Shown here: positions 2,698-10,210 of the stretch, piece by piece
Position numbering within the stretch: position 1 is the stretch's first letter
Layout of the letters: every line of letters begins with the position of its first letter
Assembly (NCBI GenBank): GCA_016867715.1
Contig: VGIW01000107.1
Coordinates: 1 to 10,210 of the forward strand
Reading direction: 5' to 3'
DNA from: Candidatus Eiseniibacteriota bacterium
GTDB taxonomy: Bacteria; Orphanbacterota; Orphanbacteria; Orphanbacterales; Orphanbacteraceae
DNA: 10,210 bases
The notes under the pieces: generated by a model
What the model saw: the letters and a program-made list of their open reading frames with translations, nothing else
Told to the model about the DNA's origin: nothing
The model's database searches: none
Position numbers and translations under genes: made by a program

Positions 2698-2728
2698 CCG
2701 GTCAATGTATCGGGCAAGGTACGATCAA

Positions 2729-2756
2729 GGTATCGGATACCGGTATCGGATACCGG
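2729..2756. repeat. tandem overlapping palindromes GGTATCGGATACCGG-TATCGGATACCGG immediately 3' of the TolB-like stop codon
   Basis: Perfect palindromic units of the same family as 2620-2658. Degenerate half-copies (GTATCGGGCAAGGTACGATC) occur at 2706-2726. Confidence 0.8.
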
Positions 2757-2757
2757 C

Positions 2758-3951
2758 TTATTCCAAGATCCAGATGTCGTAGGTGCCGCCGCGGTTCGAG
2801 GCGAAGGCGATCCGGTCGCCGCGCGGGGACCAGGCCGGCTCCCGGTCGTCGGCGAGATGGCTCGCGAGGATCTTCTTCCGGCCGCTCGCCGGGTCGACCG
2901 CCCAGATGTCGTACTGCACGTTCCGGTTGTCGGCGAAGGCGAGGAAGGGGCCTTTCGGGCAGAAGGCGGGGTGGATCTCGCGCACCATCGGGTCGTTCGC
3001 GCCGGGGACGAGGGAGAGGATCGGGTCGGGCGGCTCGACCGTCGCGAGGTCCGATCCGCCCAGCTGGTTCGAGACGAACGCGAGGGCCGTGCCGTCCGCG
3101 CGCCACGTGGCGGACGACTCCGCGGTGGCGGCGGCGGTGTACGCCTCCTCCGGTCCGGACGGTGCTCCGCTCGCGATGGCGACGGAGTAGATATTCCAGT
3201 TTCCGTCCCGGTTCGAATGGAACGCGAGGCGCGCGCCGTTCGGCGACCAGACGGGACCCCGATCCGCGAAGGAATTCGTCGTGACCTGCGTCTCCTCCCC
3301 CCCCTCCGCCAAAACGGTCCAGATGTCCCAGTTCCCCGATCGGTTCGATGCGAACGCGATCCGGTCCCCCGCCGGCGACCAGTGCGGCGAGGCGTCGTCG
3401 TTCGAGGACGAAACGAGAACGGAAGGCGAGCCCCCGGCCGAGGGGACTGTGTGGAGATCGCGAAGGCCGCTTACACCTCTTGATGCATAAACGATCGTGC
3501 TCCCGTCGGGAGACCAGGCCGGCTCCCGCTCCTCCTCGCTCGGGCTTCCGATCGAGCGGAGGGTTCGTTCGGCGAGGAGCGCGCTCACCGTGGCGGATCC
3601 CTTCGCGCCGTCGGCGTCCTCCGCCTCGACCGTGATCTCGATCGCGCCGGCATCGAAGAGGAACGCGGGGAAGTAGAGGGAGAAGGGGGAGGTCGAAGCG
3701 GTCGCGAAGATCGTTCCCGCGGCTTTCAGGCGGATCGCCGCGATGCCGTCCTCGTCGGACGCGAGGCCGGTGACGGTGAAGCCGACGCCGGAGAGCGTAT
3801 CGCCCGATCGCGGGGATTGGATCACGACCGAAGGGGGAGTCCCGCCGTTTGTCGGCGACTCGTGCTTCCCGCAACCGGCGGGAAGAAGGGCGAGTGCGAT
3901 TGCAAGAGCGAGAAGCCGCTCGAAAAGACGCGGCCGGTGCGTGGTCGACAT
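2758..3951 (-). CDS. TolB-like periplasmic protein: signal peptide/probable lipoprotein, Ig-like domain, PD40-type beta-propeller repeats
   Basis: The ATG at 3949-3951 has a GGAGGA Shine-Dalgarno sequence 7 nt upstream. The N-terminus MSTTHRPRLFERLLALAIALALLPAGC carries a non-canonical lipobox. The repeat pattern …PAWSPDG…IAFASNR.G.WDIW… recurs at least five times, which is the PD40/WD40-like TolB signature. The gene ends at TAA 2758-2760. Confidence 0.8.
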   Translation of the reverse strand: MSTTHRPRLFERLLALAIALALLPAGCGKHESPTNGGTPPSVVIQSPRSGDTLSGVGFTVTGLASDEDGIAAIRLKAAGTIFATASTSPFSLYFPAFLFDAGAIEITVEAEDADGAKGSATVSALLAERTLRSIGSPSEEEREPAWSPDGSTIVYASRGVSGLRDLHTVPSAGGSPSVLVSSSNDDASPHWSPAGDRIAFASNRSGNWDIWTVLAEGGEETQVTTNSFADRGPVWSPNGARLAFHSNRDGNWNIYSVAIASGAPSGPEEAYTAAATAESSATWRADGTALAFVSNQLGGSDLATVEPPDPILSLVPGANDPMVREIHPAFCPKGPFLAFADNRNVQYDIWAVDPASGRKKILASHLADDREPAWSPRGDRIAFASNRGGTYDIWILE

Positions 3952-4059
3952 GCTCGTTCCTCCGCGGGTTCGCCGCCGGTCGGGACTCGCCTCGAGGCCC
4001 TCTGCGAGTTGACGGCGCGAGGCGCCCGATGCTACGTTCCGCCGGATGGCGCGCCGACA

Positions 4060-6066
4060 ATGGGGAGGGCACCCGTGAGCTCCCGATGGATTCTCCCTCT
4101 ACTCCTTCTTATCGGCCTCGCGATGCGCCTCTATTACCTCCACGGCATCGAGGCGAGCCCCGAGTTCCGAGTCCCTCTCGTCGACAACCGATGGTATCAC
4201 GATCGAGCGCTCGCCTGGTCGGAAGGAAGGGCGGGGTCCGAGCTCGACCTCTTTCGCGCGCCGTTCTATCCGTTCCTCCTGGGACAACTCTACCGGGTCT
4301 TCGGATCCGGCCCGTATGTTGCGCGGATCTTCCAAATGCTTCTCGGGCTCGCGGCGATCCTGCTTGTGCACCGGATCGGGAACCGCGCCTACGGGCCTCC
4401 GGTCGGGCTCGTCGCGGCCGCCTTTTCCCTCCTCTACAATCCCTTTATCTATTATGAAAACGAGACGCTCACGACCTCGCTCCTTCTCTTTCTCCTTCTT
4501 CTCGGCTTCTTCTTGCTTCTCGGGCTCCAGGAGGGAAAGAGATTTTGGGCGCTCGCCGCGGGGGCGGTCCTCGGGCTCGCGGCGGCGACCTATCCGACGG
4601 CTCTCGCCCTTTACCCGTTCGTTCTCCTCTGGAGCGTGTGGTGCGCGCGGAGCCGCGCGATGCGGACGCTCCCCGTGCTCGCGCCTCTCGCGATCGGCCT
4701 CGCGCTCCCTCCCCTCGCGGCGGCGGCGTGGAACACGAGAACGCACGGCGCCTTCGTCCTCGCGACGCAAGGGGGCGTGAACCTTTATATCGGAAACAAT
4801 CCGAACGCGGACGGAAGGACGGCGATCGTTCCCGACTGGCGCGACATCGCCTACGAAACGAAGGAGTACGAGGACAACGTCTCCCTCGCGGCGATCCGGG
4901 TCGCCGAGCGGGAGACCGGACGGAGGCTCTCGCCGGGCGAGGCGGACCGCTTCTGGCGGGAGCGTGCGCTCGAGTGGATCGCCTCGCGCCCCGCCGACGC
5001 GCTCCGCCTCTTCGGGCGAAAGATCGTCTATCTCGCGAGCGACGAGGAGATCCCGAACAACCGTTTTCTCACCCCCCACATCGAGGAGTACGCGCCGCTT
5101 CTTCGGCGCCTCTCGCTCGGGGCGGGGTTTTTCATCGCGTTCGGGATCGCGGGGCTCCTTCTCTCGGGGGGGCGCGCCGGAGCGCGCTCGCTCCTTGCGC
5201 TCTTTCTCCTCGCGCAAGCGGCGGTTCTCGTTCTCTTCTTCGTGTGCGCGCGCTTCCGCCTTCCAATGATGCCCTTCTTCCTCGTTCTGGCGGCGCACCT
5301 CGTCGTGCGGCTCGCGCGCGAAGGGCGGCGCTTTCCGATTCGCGTCGTTCTCTTCGTGGCGGTGCCGCTCCTTCTCGTCGCGCACTCGAATGCTTTTGAC
5401 GTGAACGTTCCGGGGGATCTCGCCTCGCTCTACTTCTCGCGGGGCCACGCGTTCGCCGAGGTCGGGCGGCTCGATCGGGCGGAGGAGATGTACCGCGAGG
5501 CGCTCGCGCTCGATCCGAGCGATCCGCGAGTGCTCATCAACCTCGGGGCGGTCCTCGCGCGGGCCGGGAGAGCCGATGAGGCGGAGCGCGTGCTCCTGAC
5601 GGCGCTCGATCGGGATCCCCGCTACGCGCCGTTCGTTTGGAACAACCTCGCGCTCGCACGTCTCGTCGCCGGCGATCCGGAGGGGGCTCTTCGCTTCTTC
5701 GAGCGATCGATCGAGGCGGCTCCGGGGGACGCGGATGTGCACGCGAACGCGGCGAACGCGCTCCTCGCGCTCGGAAGACACGAGGAAGCTCTCGCGCGCT
5801 ACGACGAGGCGCTCGGACGAGGGACGGCGCGGGCGCTTCCGACGCGCCTCGGGCGCGCGCTCGCCCTCTCGGCGCTCGGAAGGGGGAAGGAGGCGCTGGC
5901 CGAGACGGAATCGGTCGCGGCCGCGGCGCCCGGCGTTCCAGAAGCGTGGGCGGTCCTCGCCGAGGTCGCCGCCGCCACGGGCGAGCCGGAGAGGGCGGAG
6001 GAGGCGCGGGCGCGCTTCCAGGCGCTGACCGGCCGCCGCCCGGGGCCGGCCGACCTCCCGTTTTGA
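4060..6066 (+). CDS. membrane glycosyltransferase of the GT39/PMT (ArnT-like, GT-C fold) family fused to C-terminal TPR repeats
   Basis: The N-terminal two-thirds has many hydrophobic segments (…PFYPFLLGQLYRVFG…ILLVHRIGNRAYG…FLLLLGFFLLLG…), typical of PMT_2/ArnT-type GT-C enzymes. The C-terminal roughly 220 aa is Ala/Leu/Arg-rich with TPR periodicity (…ALALDPSDPRVLINLGAVLARAGRADEAE…). The ATG at 4060 is one candidate start. An alternative GTG at 4075 has a GGAGG Shine-Dalgarno sequence 6 nt upstream. The in-frame extension up to 3817 is rejected because it overlaps the divergent gene start. The stop codon is TGA 6064-6066. Confidence 0.7.
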   Translation: MGRAPVSSRWILPLLLLIGLAMRLYYLHGIEASPEFRVPLVDNRWYHDRALAWSEGRAGSELDLFRAPFYPFLLGQLYRVFGSGPYVARIFQMLLGLAAILLVHRIGNRAYGPPVGLVAAAFSLLYNPFIYYENETLTTSLLLFLLLLGFFLLLGLQEGKRFWALAAGAVLGLAAATYPTALALYPFVLLWSVWCARSRAMRTLPVLAPLAIGLALPPLAAAAWNTRTHGAFVLATQGGVNLYIGNNPNADGRTAIVPDWRDIAYETKEYEDNVSLAAIRVAERETGRRLSPGEADRFWRERALEWIASRPADALRLFGRKIVYLASDEEIPNNRFLTPHIEEYAPLLRRLSLGAGFFIAFGIAGLLLSGGRAGARSLLALFLLAQAAVLVLFFVCARFRLPMMPFFLVLAAHLVVRLAREGRRFPIRVVLFVAVPLLLVAHSNAFDVNVPGDLASLYFSRGHAFAEVGRLDRAEEMYREALALDPSDPRVLINLGAVLARAGRADEAERVLLTALDRDPRYAPFVWNNLALARLVAGDPEGALRFFERSIEAAPGDADVHANAANALLALGRHEEALARYDEALGRGTARALPTRLGRALALSALGRGKEALAETESVAAAAPGVPEAWAVLAEVAAATGEPERAEEARARFQALTGRRPGPADLPF

Positions 6067-6121
6067 ACGTTTGTACCTGGTACGAAGTTGGGTAGACGTT
6101 TTGAACGTCTGTACCAGGTAC
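6061..6121. repeat. two copies of TTTTGAACGT(T/C)TGTACC(T/A)GGTAC, each containing the palindrome GTACC-N-GGTAC
   Basis: The copies lie at 6061-6083 and 6098-6121, and their palindromic centres are complementary. They sit directly at and after the GT39-TPR stop codon. Confidence 0.75.
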
Positions 6122-6143
6122 AAGGGGGACCAGGACTGGAGTA

Positions 6144-6159
6144 TGTATCGGATACCGAC
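6144..6159. repeat. REP-like palindrome TGTATCGGATACCGAC, same family as 2620-2756
   Basis: The GTATC-G-GATAC core is identical to the copies 3.5 kb upstream. Confidence 0.65.
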
Positions 6160-6226
6160 GCGCGCCATGAGGACGAAAAGGCTGATGGAGCGTCCGTTTC
6201 GGGGAAGATAGGCGAAAGAGGTAAAA

Positions 6227-6299
6227 GAGGTATCAGGTACGTCTCAACCAGGAAGAAAGAGGTATCAGGTACGTCTCAGGAAAGGTATCAGGTACCGTG
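6227..6299 (+). promoter_or_regulatory. array of three direct repeats with 31-bp period (AGAGGTATCAGGTACGTCTCA twice, AAGGTATCAGGTACCGTGG once) abutting the tadA start
   Basis: The core GGTATCAGGTAC sits at 6229-6240, 6260-6271 and 6284-6295. The last copy ends one base before the GTG at 6297. The local region is GC-poorer than its surroundings. Confidence 0.6.
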
Positions 6300-6776
6300 G
6301 ATCACGTACGCTGGATGCGCCTCGCGCTTCTTGAAGCGGAGGAGGCGGCACGAGAGGGGGAGGTCCCGGTCGGCGCGGTCGTCATCCACGAAGGGCGTGT
6401 GATCGGGCGGGGCCACAACCGGGTCGAGGGGACGAACGACCCAACCGCGCACGCCGAGATCCTCGCGATCGGCGCTGCCGCCGAGGCGCTCGGCTCGTGG
6501 AGGCTCGAAGGCGCGACCCTCTACGTCACGCTCGAACCGTGCTTCATGTGCGCGGGGGCGATCGTCCTCGCGCGTCTCGACCGTCTCGTCTTCGGCGCGA
6601 CCGACCCGAAGGCGGGCGCGTGCGTCTCGCTCGCCGGCGTCGTCCAGGACCCGCGCCTCAACCATCGGGTCGATCTCCTCCACGGCATCCTCGAAACCGA
6701 GTCGCGCGCGCTCCTCGAGGATTTCTTCCGAAAGAAGCGAGAGGAGGCCGAGGGGACCCCGCGAGAAGACGGGTAG
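6297..6776 (+). CDS. tadA: tRNA-specific adenosine(34) deaminase
   Basis: The CDA-fold zinc motifs HAE(ILAI) and (E)PCFMCAGA are present. The N-terminus [24 protein letters not shown] matches the TadA consensus. The product is 159 aa. The start is GTG 6297 (an ATG at 6315 is an alternative) and the stop is TAG 6774-6776. Confidence 0.88.
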
Positions 6777-6907
6777 AAGCGGGGAGACGACCCCGGTTCT
6801 CCGGCCCTCCTCGAAGAACGCGCGCGTCCCGCACCTCCCCGAGCTCCGCATCTGGATCGCCCCGGCGGCTGCCGAAGTCCGCGTGCGTTCCCCGCCAAAC
6901 CGAGTCT

Positions 6908-7013
6908 TGTATCGTGTCCCGGAATTCCCCCAACAGGGGATTTGTCCAATTCAGTATCGTGTCCCCGAATTTCTCGAATGACTTGATTCAGTATCGTGTC
7001 CCCGAATGTCTCC
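6908..7013 (+). repeat. three direct repeats (T/C)(T/A)GTATCGTGTCCC(C/G)GAAT at 6908-6927, 6953-6970 and 6989-7006, with GGAATTCC and CCCC-CAACA-GGGG palindromes between the first and second copies
   Basis: The repeats were read directly from the sequence. They lie in a 572-bp intergenic region whose GC content is clearly lower than the window average. Confidence 0.75.
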
Positions 7014-7293
7014 CGATCGGTTGCGCCGGCGTTCCCGAGTCCCTGAACTCGGTGGATGCCCAGGTTGCACGGATTCCGTCGACGGTCGCCGGATTTCCTT
7101 CGCCGAGTTCCGCCGCGATCGGCTGCGCGATCCCCCGGTCGCATTGCATAAGAAGAGCTGATAGATCCGATTCAATCCGTGCGAAGAAAAAGTAGCCGCC
7201 CGTTCCCCGTTCTCACTACCTTGCCCTCATCGCTCGCCCGGTCGGTCCGAGCAAGGGAGGATCCGACCGGCACGCGAAACCGCGCTCGCCTCT

Positions 7294-7302
7294 CCCCCCC
7301 CC
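7294..7302. repeat. homopolymeric C9 tract 47 bp upstream of the secreted-protein start codon
   Basis: The sequence is ctCTCCCCCCCCCacggg. Confidence 0.8.
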
Positions 7303-7348
7303 ACGGGCGGCCGGAAACGAAACACCCTTCGAAAGGAGTATCCAGAGC

Positions 7349-8137
7349 GTGAAGAAGGTACGGATGTTTGTTGCGAGCTTCGCGGCGGTCCTCATGCTGG
7401 CCGGAACCGGCTCGGCCGTGATGACGAACACTTCGGGCGATCAGCCCCTCATCCACAGCGGGCACGTTCTCACGAGCCCGGCGGTCACATCGGTCGGTCG
7501 CATTCTCTACGCGCCTTCTGAAGACGATGATCCGGCGTATCGCGCGGCGATCTCGGCGGCGGCCGGCGGAGCGGTCGTCGATTACTTCGACGCTCGCGTC
7601 GCGACCCCTGACCTCCCGTTGCTCCGCGAGTACGACTGCGTGCACACGTGGGCCAACTACCCGTACGCGGACAACGTTCTCTTCGGCGACAACCTCGCCG
7701 AGTACGTCGATATCGGCGGGCACGTGGTTCTCGGCGTCTTCTGCACGTTCACCTTGGGGAACTACCTGAGCGGGGCGATCATGACGCCCGCGTACAGCCC
7801 GGTCGTCTCTCCCTCGGGGAGCAACCATTATTCCTACAGCGCGTACGACGGTCACGGAACGACCTGCATCCACTCGGGCGTGTCGGCCTACGGATCGTCC
7901 TATCGTGACATGCTCGCGCTCCAGGGCGGCGGCCTCGTCGCCGGCAACTTCCAGGACGGCGAGATCGCCCACGCGTATCGCCCCGACTTCGCTGTGGTCT
8001 ACAGCAACGGCTCCGGCGGTTATCCGATCTACGGCGACGGCGACTGGCCGCTCCTCCTCGCGAACTCGTGCGCCTGCGACGGGTCGACCGCGGTCGAGGA
8101 GACGACCTGGGGCCGCGTGAAGACGTTCTTCCGGTAG
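7349..8137 (+). CDS. secreted Tyr/Gly/Ser-rich hypothetical protein, 262 aa with a Sec signal peptide
   Basis: The GTG at 7349 has an AAAGGAG Shine-Dalgarno sequence at 7332-7338. The signal peptide is MKKVRMFVASFAAVLMLAGTGSA. The mature protein is rich in Y, G and S, has 6 Cys and ends …CACDGSTAVEETTWGRVKTFFR. I recognise no domain. The stop codon is TAG 8135-8137. Confidence 0.7.
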   Translation: MKKVRMFVASFAAVLMLAGTGSAVMTNTSGDQPLIHSGHVLTSPAVTSVGRILYAPSEDDDPAYRAAISAAAGGAVVDYFDARVATPDLPLLREYDCVHTWANYPYADNVLFGDNLAEYVDIGGHVVLGVFCTFTLGNYLSGAIMTPAYSPVVSPSGSNHYSYSAYDGHGTTCIHSGVSAYGSSYRDMLALQGGGLVAGNFQDGEIAHAYRPDFAVVYSNGSGGYPIYGDGDWPLLLANSCACDGSTAVEETTWGRVKTFFR

Positions 8138-8166
8138 ATCGACGATTCTCATTGGAACCCTTGCAG

Positions 8167-8198
8167 GGGCGGCTCCGCGCAAGGAGCCGCCCATTTTC
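8167..8198 (+). terminator. Rho-independent terminator
   Basis: A 10-bp stem GGGCGGCTCC/GGAGCCGCCC with loop GCGCAA is followed by ATTTTC, about 30 bp after the stop codon. Confidence 0.65.
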
Positions 8199-8265
8199 GC
8201 GGGGACCCGAACCCCTCGCTTCGCGCGCGGCGGAAGCGCCCCGAGCGTCCGCTCTCGGAAGCCAC

Positions 8266-8294
8266 TTGCAGCAGGTCGCTCAACCCGGTAACCT
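8266..8294 (+). promoter_or_regulatory. candidate promoter for the second tRNA/ffs cluster (TTGCAG, 17-bp spacer, TAACCT)
   Basis: Only a hexamer match. It is followed by a GGCGGGC…GCCCGCC hairpin before tRNA-Ser at 8379. Confidence 0.3.
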
Positions 8295-8378
8295 ACCGGG
8301 GAGGATGCTCGAGACTCGAGGCGGGCCTTCGGTCCTTTGCAAGCCGCCCGCCCGAAAGCCGCGAGGTCCATCCTCGCC

Positions 8379-8465
8379 GGAGAGATGCCGGAGTGGTTGA
8401 ACGGGACGGTCTCGAAAACCGTTGAGGGGGCAACCCCTCCGAGGGTTCGAATCCCTCTCTCTCCG
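8379..8465 (+). tRNA. tRNA-Ser (anticodon CGA), type II, with CCA encoded
   Basis: The acceptor stem is GGAGAGA/TCTCTCC. The anticodon stem is ACGGT/ACCGT and the loop CTCGAAA gives anticodon CGA. There is a long variable arm (GAGGGGGCAACCCCTCC), T arm GAGGG-TTCGAAT-CCCTC and discriminator G, then CCA. Confidence 0.9.
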
Positions 8466-8543
8466 CCAGCGACGCGCGCGCGAGAAGCCGCCGGAGAGGA
8501 CTCGGAACCGGGTGACGTCTTCCTCCGGAGCTGATAGAATGCC

Positions 8544-8630
8544 GGAGAGTTGCGAGAGCGGTTGAATCGGCGTGATTGGAAATCACGTGTACGGGCAACC
8601 GTACCGAGGGTTCGAATCCCTCACTCTCCG
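8544..8630 (+). tRNA. tRNA-Ser (anticodon GGA), type II, with CCA encoded
   Basis: The acceptor stem is GGAGAGT/ACTCTCC. The anticodon stem is CGTGA/TCACG and the loop TTGGAAA gives anticodon GGA. There is a long variable arm (TGTACGGGCAACCGTACC), T loop TTCGAAT and discriminator G, then CCA. Confidence 0.9.
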
Positions 8631-8680
8631 CCATCAATGGGCGCGGCCGCTCGGGCCGCCGTTTGGTCGAGAGTCGGGTC

Positions 8681-8753
8681 GGGGATGTAGCTCAGTTGGG
8701 AGAGCGCTGCCTTCGCAAGGCAGAGGTCGGCGGTTCGATCCCGCTCATCTCCA
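8681..8753 (+). tRNA. tRNA-Ala (anticodon CGC), with CCA encoded
   Basis: The acceptor stem GGGGATG/CATCTCC carries the G3:U70 alanine identity pair. The D arm is GCTC-AGTTGGGA-GAGC. The anticodon loop TTCGCAA gives anticodon CGC. The T loop is TTCGATC and the discriminator is A, then CCA. Confidence 0.9.
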
Positions 8754-8775
8754 CCATTTCATTGATTGATCAAGG

Positions 8776-9092
8776 GTCGCCGCCTGAACAGTGTGGGTCG
8801 TGCTAGACGGGGAGTTAGCGGTGCCCTGAACCCGCAATCCGCTCCAGCGGGGTTGAATCCCTTTCCGAGGCCCGGCCTCGGCGGAGGCAGGGAACGAGAG
8901 ACGGCGTGGAAGGCCAGGTCCCGCGCGATGGGGGACCGTGAACCCCGTCAGGACCGGAAGGTAGCAGCGGTAAGCGGATCTTTCCATGCGCCGCGGGCTC
9001 GCTTGGTCTGAGCCGCGCTCTCGCCGACCGCTTCGTCCGGGAGGGTCGACGAAAGGTGCACGGCCTACTCCTCTCGTCCGGGTGAAACGCGG
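8776..9092 (+). ncRNA. ffs: signal recognition particle RNA, long form with extended helix 5; boundaries approximate
   Basis: The domain IV motif GTCAGGACCGGAAGGTAGCAGC at 8947-8968 matches the consensus GUCAGGNCCGGAAGGNAGCAGC, with the GGAA tetraloop at 8956-8959. Hand pairing shows that 8917-8935 pairs with 8980-9000 (CCCGCGCGAUGGGGGA with UCUUUCCAUGCGCCGCGGG). Further out, 5' GGCCAGG pairs with 3' CUUGGUC, and CGAGAGACGGCG at 8895-8906 pairs with CGCCGCGCUCUCG at 9012-9024. The helix is therefore longer than in a 4.5S-type RNA. The location immediately upstream of dnaX is the classical ffs position. Confidence 0.75.
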
Positions 9093-9116
9093 CGCCAGCG
9101 AAAGGCGGTTCCTCCG

Positions 9117-10210
9117 GTGAGCTATCTCGTTCTCGCCCGCAAGTGGCGCCCCGCGCGCTTCTCGGATCTCGTGGGCCAGGCGCACGTGGCCCGCACGCTC
9201 GAGAACGCCATCCGCCAGGAGTGCGTCGCGCACGCGTATCTCTTCGCCGGGCCGCGCGGGGTGGGGAAGACCTCGACCGCGCGCATCCTTGCCGCCGCCC
9301 TGAACTGCGAGAAGGGGCCGACCCCCGAACCGTGCGGGACCTGCCCGCACTGCCGGGAGATCGCCGCCGGCCGAAGCCTCGACGTCCTCGAGATCGACGG
9401 CGCCTCGAACCGCGGGATCGACGAGGTCCGCGACCTCCGCGAGAACGTCCGCTACATGGCCTCCGCCGGGAAGCGGAAGGTCTACATCATCGACGAAGTT
9501 CATATGTTAACCGTCGAGGCGTTCAACGCTCTTCTCAAGACGCTCGAGGAGCCCCCCTCGCACGTCCTCTTCGTGTTCGCGACGACCCGACCGACGAAGG
9601 TCCCCGCGACGATCCTCTCGCGGACGATCCGCTTCGATTTCCGCCGCATCGACGCGAAGAGCATCGTCGGGCGCCTCGAGGCGATCGTGAAAGCGGAGAA
9701 GATCGAAGCGGAGGAGAAGGCGCTCCATCTTGTCGCGCGCGCGGCGGACGGAAGCATGCGCGACGCGCTCTCGCTCCTCGAGCAGGCGCGCGCCTTCGGA
9801 GGCGGGAAGCTCGCGGCGGCGGAGACGGAGGAGGCGCTCGGGATTGTCGACGAAAACCATCTCTTCGCGATCTCCGCGGCGGCCCGCGCGGGGGATCCGC
9901 TCGCCGCGATGACCACGATCGACGAGGCGGCGAGCCGGGGGCGGGATCCTTCCGATTTCCTCATCGCCCTCGAGGAGCACTTTCGGAACCTCCTCGTCGC
10001 GCGCGTGAGCAAGAACCCGGGCGCCCTGATCGACGCCGCCGAGGAGACGATCGCGCGCTACCGAGAGGAGGCGGCCGCCTTCCACCCGGACGATCTCATT
10101 CGCATGCTCACTCTTCTCGGAGAGGGAGGGCGGGAGATTCGCTTCTCGCAGAAACCGCGCCTCGTCCTCGAGATGCTCCTTCTTCGTCTCGTTCGCATGG
10201 ACTCGACCGT
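9117..10210 (+). CDS. dnaX: DNA polymerase III subunit gamma/tau, 3'-truncated at the window edge
   Basis: The GTG at 9117 has an AAAGG motif about 9 nt upstream. The N-terminus is LARKWRPARFSDLVGQ. The Walker A motif is GPRGVGKTS and the zinc module is CxxCxxC…C (CGTCPHC). The Walker B motif is YIIDEVHML, and sensor and Arg-finger regions follow (LLKTLEEPP, SRT). The frame is open to the window end. Confidence 0.95.
   Translation, partial: MSYLVLARKWRPARFSDLVGQAHVARTLENAIRQECVAHAYLFAGPRGVGKTSTARILAAALNCEKGPTPEPCGTCPHCREIAAGRSLDVLEIDGASNRGIDEVRDLRENVRYMASAGKRKVYIIDEVHMLTVEAFNALLKTLEEPPSHVLFVFATTRPTKVPATILSRTIRFDFRRIDAKSIVGRLEAIVKAEKIEAEEKALHLVARAADGSMRDALSLLEQARAFGGGKLAAAETEEALGIVDENHLFAISAAARAGDPLAAMTTIDEAASRGRDPSDFLIALEEHFRNLLVARVSKNPGALIDAAEETIARYREEAAAFHPDDLIRMLTLLGEGGREIRFSQKPRLVLEMLLLRLVRMDST

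Follow-up and report, generated by a model that had tools for sequence, protein, structure and literature searches.

Previous studies described RAYT-like genes that have long terminal inverted repeats (TIRs) on their two sides and not REPs, named their products TIRYTs and the units TIRtrons, and noted that many TIRs share the motif GGGGWSAS and that TIR families occur as single copies, dimers or groups (Di Nocera 2013, PMC3733652). TIRYTs were equated with subclass 2.1 of the TnpA_REP proteins, and a C-terminal HTH-like domain was reported for this subclass, in another study (Quentin 2018, PMC6006769). Related to these are the REPs, classically imperfect palindromes of 20-40 nt that form clusters (BIMEs) or head-to-head doublets able to form hairpins (REPINs), and the bacterial MITEs (Correia/NEMIS, RUP, ERIC), which are non-coding elements of the TIR-loop-TIR type. 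TnpA_REP and IS200/IS605 enzymes act on single-stranded hairpin DNA; to our knowledge no TIRYT has been characterised biochemically, and we know of no biochemical evidence that TIRYTs move TIR repeats.

The window analysed here, which is the whole stretch of 10,210 nt from a Candidatus Eisenbacteria contig (VGIW01000107.1), contains tadA at 6297-6776 (Pfam MafB19-deam, dCMP_cyt_deam_1) and, downstream of it, a gene for a 262-aa protein with a signal-peptide-like N-terminus, which starts with GTG at 7349 and has AAAGGAG upstream at 7332-7338. The spacer from the tadA end at 6776 to this GTG is 572 nt long, has a GC of 0.57-0.63 against 0.65-0.70 in the flanking DNA, and shows no third-position GC periodicity across 6780-7348, which was consistent with the original prediction of a long, lower-GC intergenic region with no coding ORF. 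With the tadA sequence we found one 3.2-kb Logan contig identical to window 5232-8415, and a metagenome scan with the window-specific 20-mer TCAGTATCGTGTCCCCGAAT returned 3 unrelated contigs. The 262-aa and 170-aa proteins of the window had no exact match in protein look-ups. Three copies of a unit of about 27 nt, and a doubtful fourth, were located on the plus strand of the spacer:

6904-6930, plus strand: putative TIR-type unit copy 1, GTCTTGTATCGTGTCCCGGAATTCCCC, 74% identical to the reference copy, 2/18 mismatches, family profile E 9.6e-06
6948-6974, plus strand: putative TIR-type unit copy 2, ATTCAGTATCGTGTCCCCGAATTTCTC, exact match to the cross-phylum 18-mer GTATCGTGTCCCCGAATT, family profile E 7.2e-09
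6986-7012, plus strand: putative TIR-type unit copy 3, ATTCAGTATCGTGTCCCCGAATGTCTC, family profile E 2.4e-07
7073-7099, plus strand: doubtful fourth, decayed unit, ATTCCGTCGACGGTCGCCGGATTTCCT, 63% identity

The 18-mer AGTATCGTGTCCCCGAAT is exact at 6953-6970 and 6990-7007, has 2 mismatches at 6908-6925, had zero matches in 200 shuffles, and can be extended to the 27 nt of copy 2. A family profile of 179 non-window units matched exactly the three copies and nothing else in the 10 kb, and by this profile the possible unit at 7073-7099 was undetected or not significant. Three direct repeats had been predicted with spacings of 45 and 36 bp; the three same-strand copies stand, but they are spaced 45 and 37 nt start to start and copy 1 is imperfect. 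Copy 1 is degenerate, has CGGGACAC, and lacks GGGGWSAS because its core is CCCGG in place of CCCCG, while copies 2 and 3 carry the motif as GGGGACAC on the minus strand (6959-6966 and 6996-7003). The units start with GTAT, contain no inverted repeat within a single unit, and, with as many as 5 mismatches allowed, lack an inverted partner. The palindromes said to be interleaved with the repeats, GGAATTCC (6921-6928) and CCCC-N5-GGGG (6927-6939), occur once each between copies 1 and 2 and at chance frequency, and therefore they are not interleaved with them.

The core of the repeat is the 17-mer GTATCGTGTCCCCGAAT, often extended by T to 18. When 185,579 species genomes were scanned for exact matches to the 17-mer, 91 loci were obtained, a count that alone proves nothing because by our own arithmetic (about 1.2e12 positions over 4^17) chance would yield about 70. 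An inverted head-to-head partner was present within 130 nt in 58 of the 91 loci, and the layout of the pairs was always AATTCGGGGACACGATAC - loop of 10-67 nt - GTATCGTGTCCCCGAATT, with the GTAT head facing the loop; some variants in other genomes start with GTAA. The bases beyond the 17-mer were also non-random: the upstream ones read AATT(A/C)C, and 87/111 units had T at +18. The window units share this outside-core pattern (ATTCA...T). The hosts are Myxococcota, Acidobacteriota (including Aminicenantes), Alphaproteobacteria (Sphingomonas, Phenylobacterium), "Deltaproteobacteria" and Candidatus Eisenbacteria, and a single Myxococcales MAG supplies dozens of paired elements. According to crude gene calls, the paired elements are intergenic in 66/70 cases, and they lie mostly between convergent or co-directional genes, mainly downstream of genes; by eye, no target-site duplication was evident in their flanks. 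The 17-18-nt core was absent from the paper texts and supplement text that we searched, and its literature matches were unrelated primers.

The two arms of a pair are not always alike. In the Myxococcales MAG SMAG_U7511 (L017, L024, L042, L077, L085, L088), the arm subtypes GTATCGTG and GTAAGGTG are mixed within single head-to-head pairs, and two loop-adjacent positions are therefore non-complementary, and in other genomes both arms vary in concert (GTATTGTG in L049/L053, GTATAGTG in L041). Mixed versus co-varying arms could help to decide between a hairpin reading and separate binding sites. The Phenylobacterium contig L041 also has a near-threshold Rfam match to whalefall-1 RNA at 2162-2215 (33.4 bits vs gathering 37), which is unrelated to the repeat.

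The same arms were also found around transposase genes. In L023 (Acidobacteriaceae) they are 784 nt apart, at 2967 (minus strand) and 3751 (plus strand), around an ORF of 229 aa (3025-3714) that matches Pfam Y1_Tnp (PF01797) above cutoff. Homologues of this protein with the flanking motif were located by tblastn; Y1_Tnp genes flanked by arms are present in L023, L069, L018, L036 and L081 (all above cutoff), the one in L025 being frameshifted, and these loci span Acidobacteriota (L023, L036), Myxococcales (L018) and Alphaproteobacteria (L081). Over 216 aa, the protein of L018 shows 57% identity to GSU2396 (E 2e-92), that of L023 shows 53% identity to BBta_5382 (E 6e-81), and the flanked proteins are 38-52% identical to the L018 protein; GSU2396 and BBta_5382 are both listed as TIRYTs in supplement 5 of Di Nocera 2013 (PMC3733652). 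The best solved relative is E. coli TnpA_REP (4ER8, E 5.8e-07), and the C-terminal block TGRPxG..F...E...GR....GR.P is conserved in the flanked proteins and common to published TIRYTs. Unlike the reported TIRYT subclass, the 5 proteins tested have no C-terminal HTH detectable by Pfam (Bac_DnaA_C, HTH_23 or HTH_28), since Y1_Tnp was the only match in each of them at E <= 1. The window gave no TIRYT gene by tblastn, and a search with a TIRYT-alignment profile gave no Eisenbacteria label among the best 120 of at least 7,995 matches.

The TIR of some TIRtrons extends into the transposase ORF at its 3' end: in L018 it encodes at 5638-5655 the ORF end ...RIVSPN with the stop, and in L069 at 5985-6002 the end ...MYRVPE with the stop of the ORF as called. 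The Acidobacteriaceae contig L025 carries its frameshifted TIR-flanked TIRYT copy about 1.5 kb from a 41%-identical paralogue (genes 447-1250 and 2732-3439), and the second paralogue resembles Koribacter Acid345_2776.

We filed the window units as a TIRYT-type TIR family because of their GGGGWSAS core and of the flanked proteins that are 53-57% identical to published TIRYTs. Therefore, we presumed that the three repeats are probably non-autonomous copies of the TIR sequence of a TIRYT element, that is, of an IS200-like Y1/HUH transposase gene with GGGGWSAS TIRs, and so would represent selfish-DNA debris and not a regulatory hub or a small RNA gene. The likeness to TIRtrons lies in the shared core signature, in the inverted copies of the same sequence that flank the genes of these proteins in other genomes, and in the occurrence of copies as singles, dimers and groups in intergenic DNA. 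The window itself presents a "grouped" cluster of three same-orientation units, downstream of tadA and ~190-290 nt upstream of the inferred promoter of the next gene. It differs from TIRtrons in that the units have the same orientation only and no transposase gene is in the window, and in its host, since the available text of PMC3733652 and PMC6006769 does not list Candidatus Eisenbacteria with the other phyla. New here are this host phylum and the direct-array form; the kind of repeat itself is already known.

Like REP/BIME/REPIN sequences with their RAYTs, the family is a short, abundant, intergenic repeat that flanks an IS200-like Y1 transposase gene in inverted orientation, and it forms hairpin-capable head-to-head doublets as REPINs do and clusters of units as BIMEs do. 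However, a single unit is not a palindrome, its head is GTAT and not a GTAG or CGTC tag, and the L023 ORF scores 71.2 bits with the equivalog model NF047646 (REP_Tyr_transpos), below the cutoff of 80. The members in other genomes also resemble bacterial MITEs, as non-coding TIR-loop-TIR elements of 46-103 nt, and these short members have the look of derivatives that arose from the transposase-bearing element by internal deletion; gene-less short head-to-head pairs and clusters are far commoner than TIR-flanked transposase genes. The differences from MITEs are a Y1/HUH and not a DDE transposase, the lack of an evident target-site duplication and, in the window, of an inverted partner.

Further evidence was provided by the orthologous site in relatives, which delimits one more feature:

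6908-7130, no strand assigned: lineage-specific 223-nt block with the repeat cluster inside, corresponding to 20 nt in L096/L097 and absent from L102

Two close relatives, GCA_020061515.1 and GCA_020060305.1 (L096/L097, 91% protein identity), keep the tadA-to-gene synteny and have a spacer of 372 nt with one diverged unit, GCATGGCGTCCCCGGATTTC (family profile E 1e-3), and the syntenic L102 (68% protein identity) has a spacer of 223 nt and no unit. Because the relatives have one degenerate copy or none, the cluster was regarded as a lineage-specific block. The original prediction had named a lack of conservation of the repeats in related genomes as one half of what would count against it, and the single degenerate copy at 91% identity and the lack of any at 68% bear this half out. 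The left flank of the single copy in L096/L097 is as that of window copy 1, and its right flank resembles that of the unit at 7073-7099; these flanks fit either a deletion between direct units or an expansion within an old unit. Filled and nearly empty sites (the window, L096/L097 and L102) could serve for studying cluster growth. From the non-conservation we infer that the units probably play no dedicated part in the control of the genes on either side.

How the units came to the spacer can be proposed in outline. A TIRYT may have deposited or amplified them in trans, or they may stem from local recombination of one unit with another. If the transposase works as TnpA_REP and IS200/IS605 enzymes do, its target would be the single-stranded hairpin DNA of paired TIRs, so that head-to-head pairs would be its sole substrates. 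Such hairpin-based mobilisation would be inapplicable to the present window units because they all have the same orientation and no inverted partner. As no two of them can pair, the units are probably relics that do not move.

A related arrangement was observed in the Eisenbacteria MAG JBDROZ01, which has clusters of mostly same-orientation units on two contigs, as well as a gene for a homologue of the window's 262-aa protein, so that the grouped direct arrangement recurs in Eisenbacteria. It is a doubtful but conceivable extension that in this phylum the TIRYT-type repeat grows mainly as same-orientation arrays (the clusters of the window, L009 and L092), while elsewhere it is mostly found as head-to-head pairs. 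Because same-orientation arrays cannot form the hairpins that a Y1 enzyme would use, they may reflect another mode of propagation or co-option by the host as protein-binding arrays. In the former case single double-stranded units might be recognised, perhaps by the conserved C-terminal domain. If true, the identical 17-18-nt core across at least four phyla, with proteins only 38-52% identical to that of L018, would mean an unusually rigid shared recognition code. One TIR core is letter-for-letter identical in Myxococcota, Acidobacteriota, Alphaproteobacteria and Eisenbacteria, and such a defined consensus substrate would be useful for TIRYT biochemistry.

Among the other explanations, co-option by the host of a transposase-derived repeat survives best and is nonetheless unlikely. 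The units would then serve, for example, in the tadA 3' UTR (mRNA stability or termination) or offer a domesticated TIRYT a place to land; such roles, including a proposed landing pad, are credited to REP/BIME elements in the literature, and the position of the family members mainly downstream of genes agrees with them. The identity of two units with the pan-phylum consensus would suggest constraint, or else a recent origin. However, units of the same orientation give no stable hairpin, no T-tract terminator was found in the spacer, and the cluster is missing from the close relatives.

The original prediction of a regulatory hub, in which the repeats would form an array of transcription-factor sites controlling the secreted-protein gene, is less probable still and appears very unlikely to us. 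It could draw on three well-preserved units on one strand upstream of the gene, two of which match the family consensus exactly, and on the Aminicenantes loci L029 and L075, in each of which a unit closely precedes a ribosome-binding site with its start codon. Against this, the cluster is absent from or reduced in the orthologous spacers though the gene and its promoter region are conserved, the inferred -35 lies ~190-290 nt downstream of the units, their spacing (45 and 37 nt) shows no helical phasing, and the same sequence adjoins unrelated genes in other phyla, mostly downstream of them, and flanks transposase genes.

A separate small non-coding RNA containing the repeated motif, to which the long, non-coding spacer would lend itself, is hardly credible, as the Rfam scan that had been proposed (Rfam 15 covariance models) gave zero matches at E <= 1 within 6777-7348 and none at canonical paired elements in 13 other loci, the folding of the repeat cluster was no better than that of shuffles on either strand (z = -0.97 and +0.52), a consensus scan found neither a promoter-like nor a terminator-like site in the spacer, and the region is not conserved in relatives. 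With the cluster non-conserved, the repeat dispersed and linked to transposases, Rfam empty and no excess of folding, neither half of the hub-or-RNA reading was retained for the repeats. The TIRYT-type reading explains ~200 nt of the long spacer as repeat DNA, which averts a false annotation of a small RNA or an operator.

Several other candidates were considered and rejected. The ends of Tn7-, Mu- or IS21-like transposons with subterminal direct repeats did not apply, with no inverted partner and no DDE transposase in the window, and TGT is not an outer end because the GTAT head faces the loop in other genomes. A sigma54 promoter, a resolvase res site and an integron attC were set aside as the sequence misfits their consensus sites. 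A CRISPR array was rejected on its 27-nt units with irregular gaps of 18 and 10 nt and on the lack of cas-like genes among the Pfam matches of the window.

Conservation of the spacer is confined to its last ~200 nt, which contain the promoter region and the leader of the secreted-protein gene:

7193-7222, plus strand: inferred promoter of the secreted-protein gene, -35 TAGCCG (7193-7198), 18-nt spacer, -10 TACCTT (7217-7222), from positional homology to relatives
7238-7248 and 7259-7270, plus strand: hairpin CCGGTCGGTCC/GGATCCGACCGG, close to where the mRNA is predicted to begin, invariant in L096/L097

Sites of the form TTGNNN-N16-18-TANNNT are found 150-166 nt upstream of the start codon in L096, L102, L103, L099 and L104. 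The -35 of the window, TAGCCG, is weakened compared with TTGCCC, TTGCAC or TTGCCA of the relatives, and as the window site fails the consensus scan, the promoter was placed by homology only. From sequence comparison we therefore predict that a sigma70-like promoter precedes the start codon by about 155 nt and that transcription starts near 7229-7232; a 5' UTR of ~120 nt, with the 7238-7270 hairpin at its beginning, is plausible. This hairpin and the AT-richer stretch (7140-7195 in the original prediction), of which 7140-7192 lies directly upstream of the inferred -35, were located where they had been reported. The 5' UTR had been put at about 150 nt or more; a long leader survives, given the conserved last ~200 nt and the homologous promoters, but its predicted length is ~120 nt. 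Hairpins of other sequence were seen by eye at the same place in L102 and L103, and the upstream regions of non-syntenic homologues gave no alignment. The consensus structure of six leaders was weak (-1.99 kcal/mol, few compensatory changes), for which reason no conserved RNA element is claimed in the leader.

The sigma70-like promoter 150-166 nt upstream is kept in homologues even with a different upstream neighbour, and as its position is kept across homologues, a leader of ~120 nt seems typical of the secreted-protein family. In addition, a short block, CCCCCC..GGGC(G/A)GCCGGAA, is conserved upstream in the closer homologues. The 262-aa secreted protein (7349-8137) has no Pfam domain. Its homologues number at least 174, most of them from Eisenbacteria and some with a Planctomycetota label, and they assign the window to Candidatus Eisenbacteria. 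The end of the 262-aa protein, ...TWGRVKTFFR, may represent a sorting tag at the C-terminus. Some homologues are longer (~350-450 aa), and two of these carry PF13948.

At the other end of the spacer, the last ~75 nt of tadA recur, inverted and imperfect, just 3' of the stop codon:

6703-6826, plus strand: long imperfect hairpin spanning the tadA stop, tadA 3' end 6703-6758 against inverted 6795-6826

Its arms are 6703-6721/6808-6826 (I1: 19 nt, 89%) and 6741-6758/6795-6812 (I2: 18 nt, 72%), and its predicted fold has -69.3 kcal/mol (z -1.68). The inverted repeat region is kept in the 91% relatives and absent from L102.

Elsewhere in the window, 1725-2700 has no clear coding frame, the ORF 2758-3951 (minus strand) has a strong coding-like GC3 of 0.86, and the 456-aa ORF 2702-4072 (minus strand), in another reading frame, has no Pfam match. 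Two tRNA clusters at 1178-1724 and 8379-9063 comprise four tRNA-Ser (TGA, GCT, CGA, GGA), tRNA-Arg(ACG) and tRNA-Ala(CGC). A large-type SRP RNA was found at 8798-9063 (185 bits), and the mechanical ORF 8745-9503 (minus strand), which overlaps it, is probably spurious.
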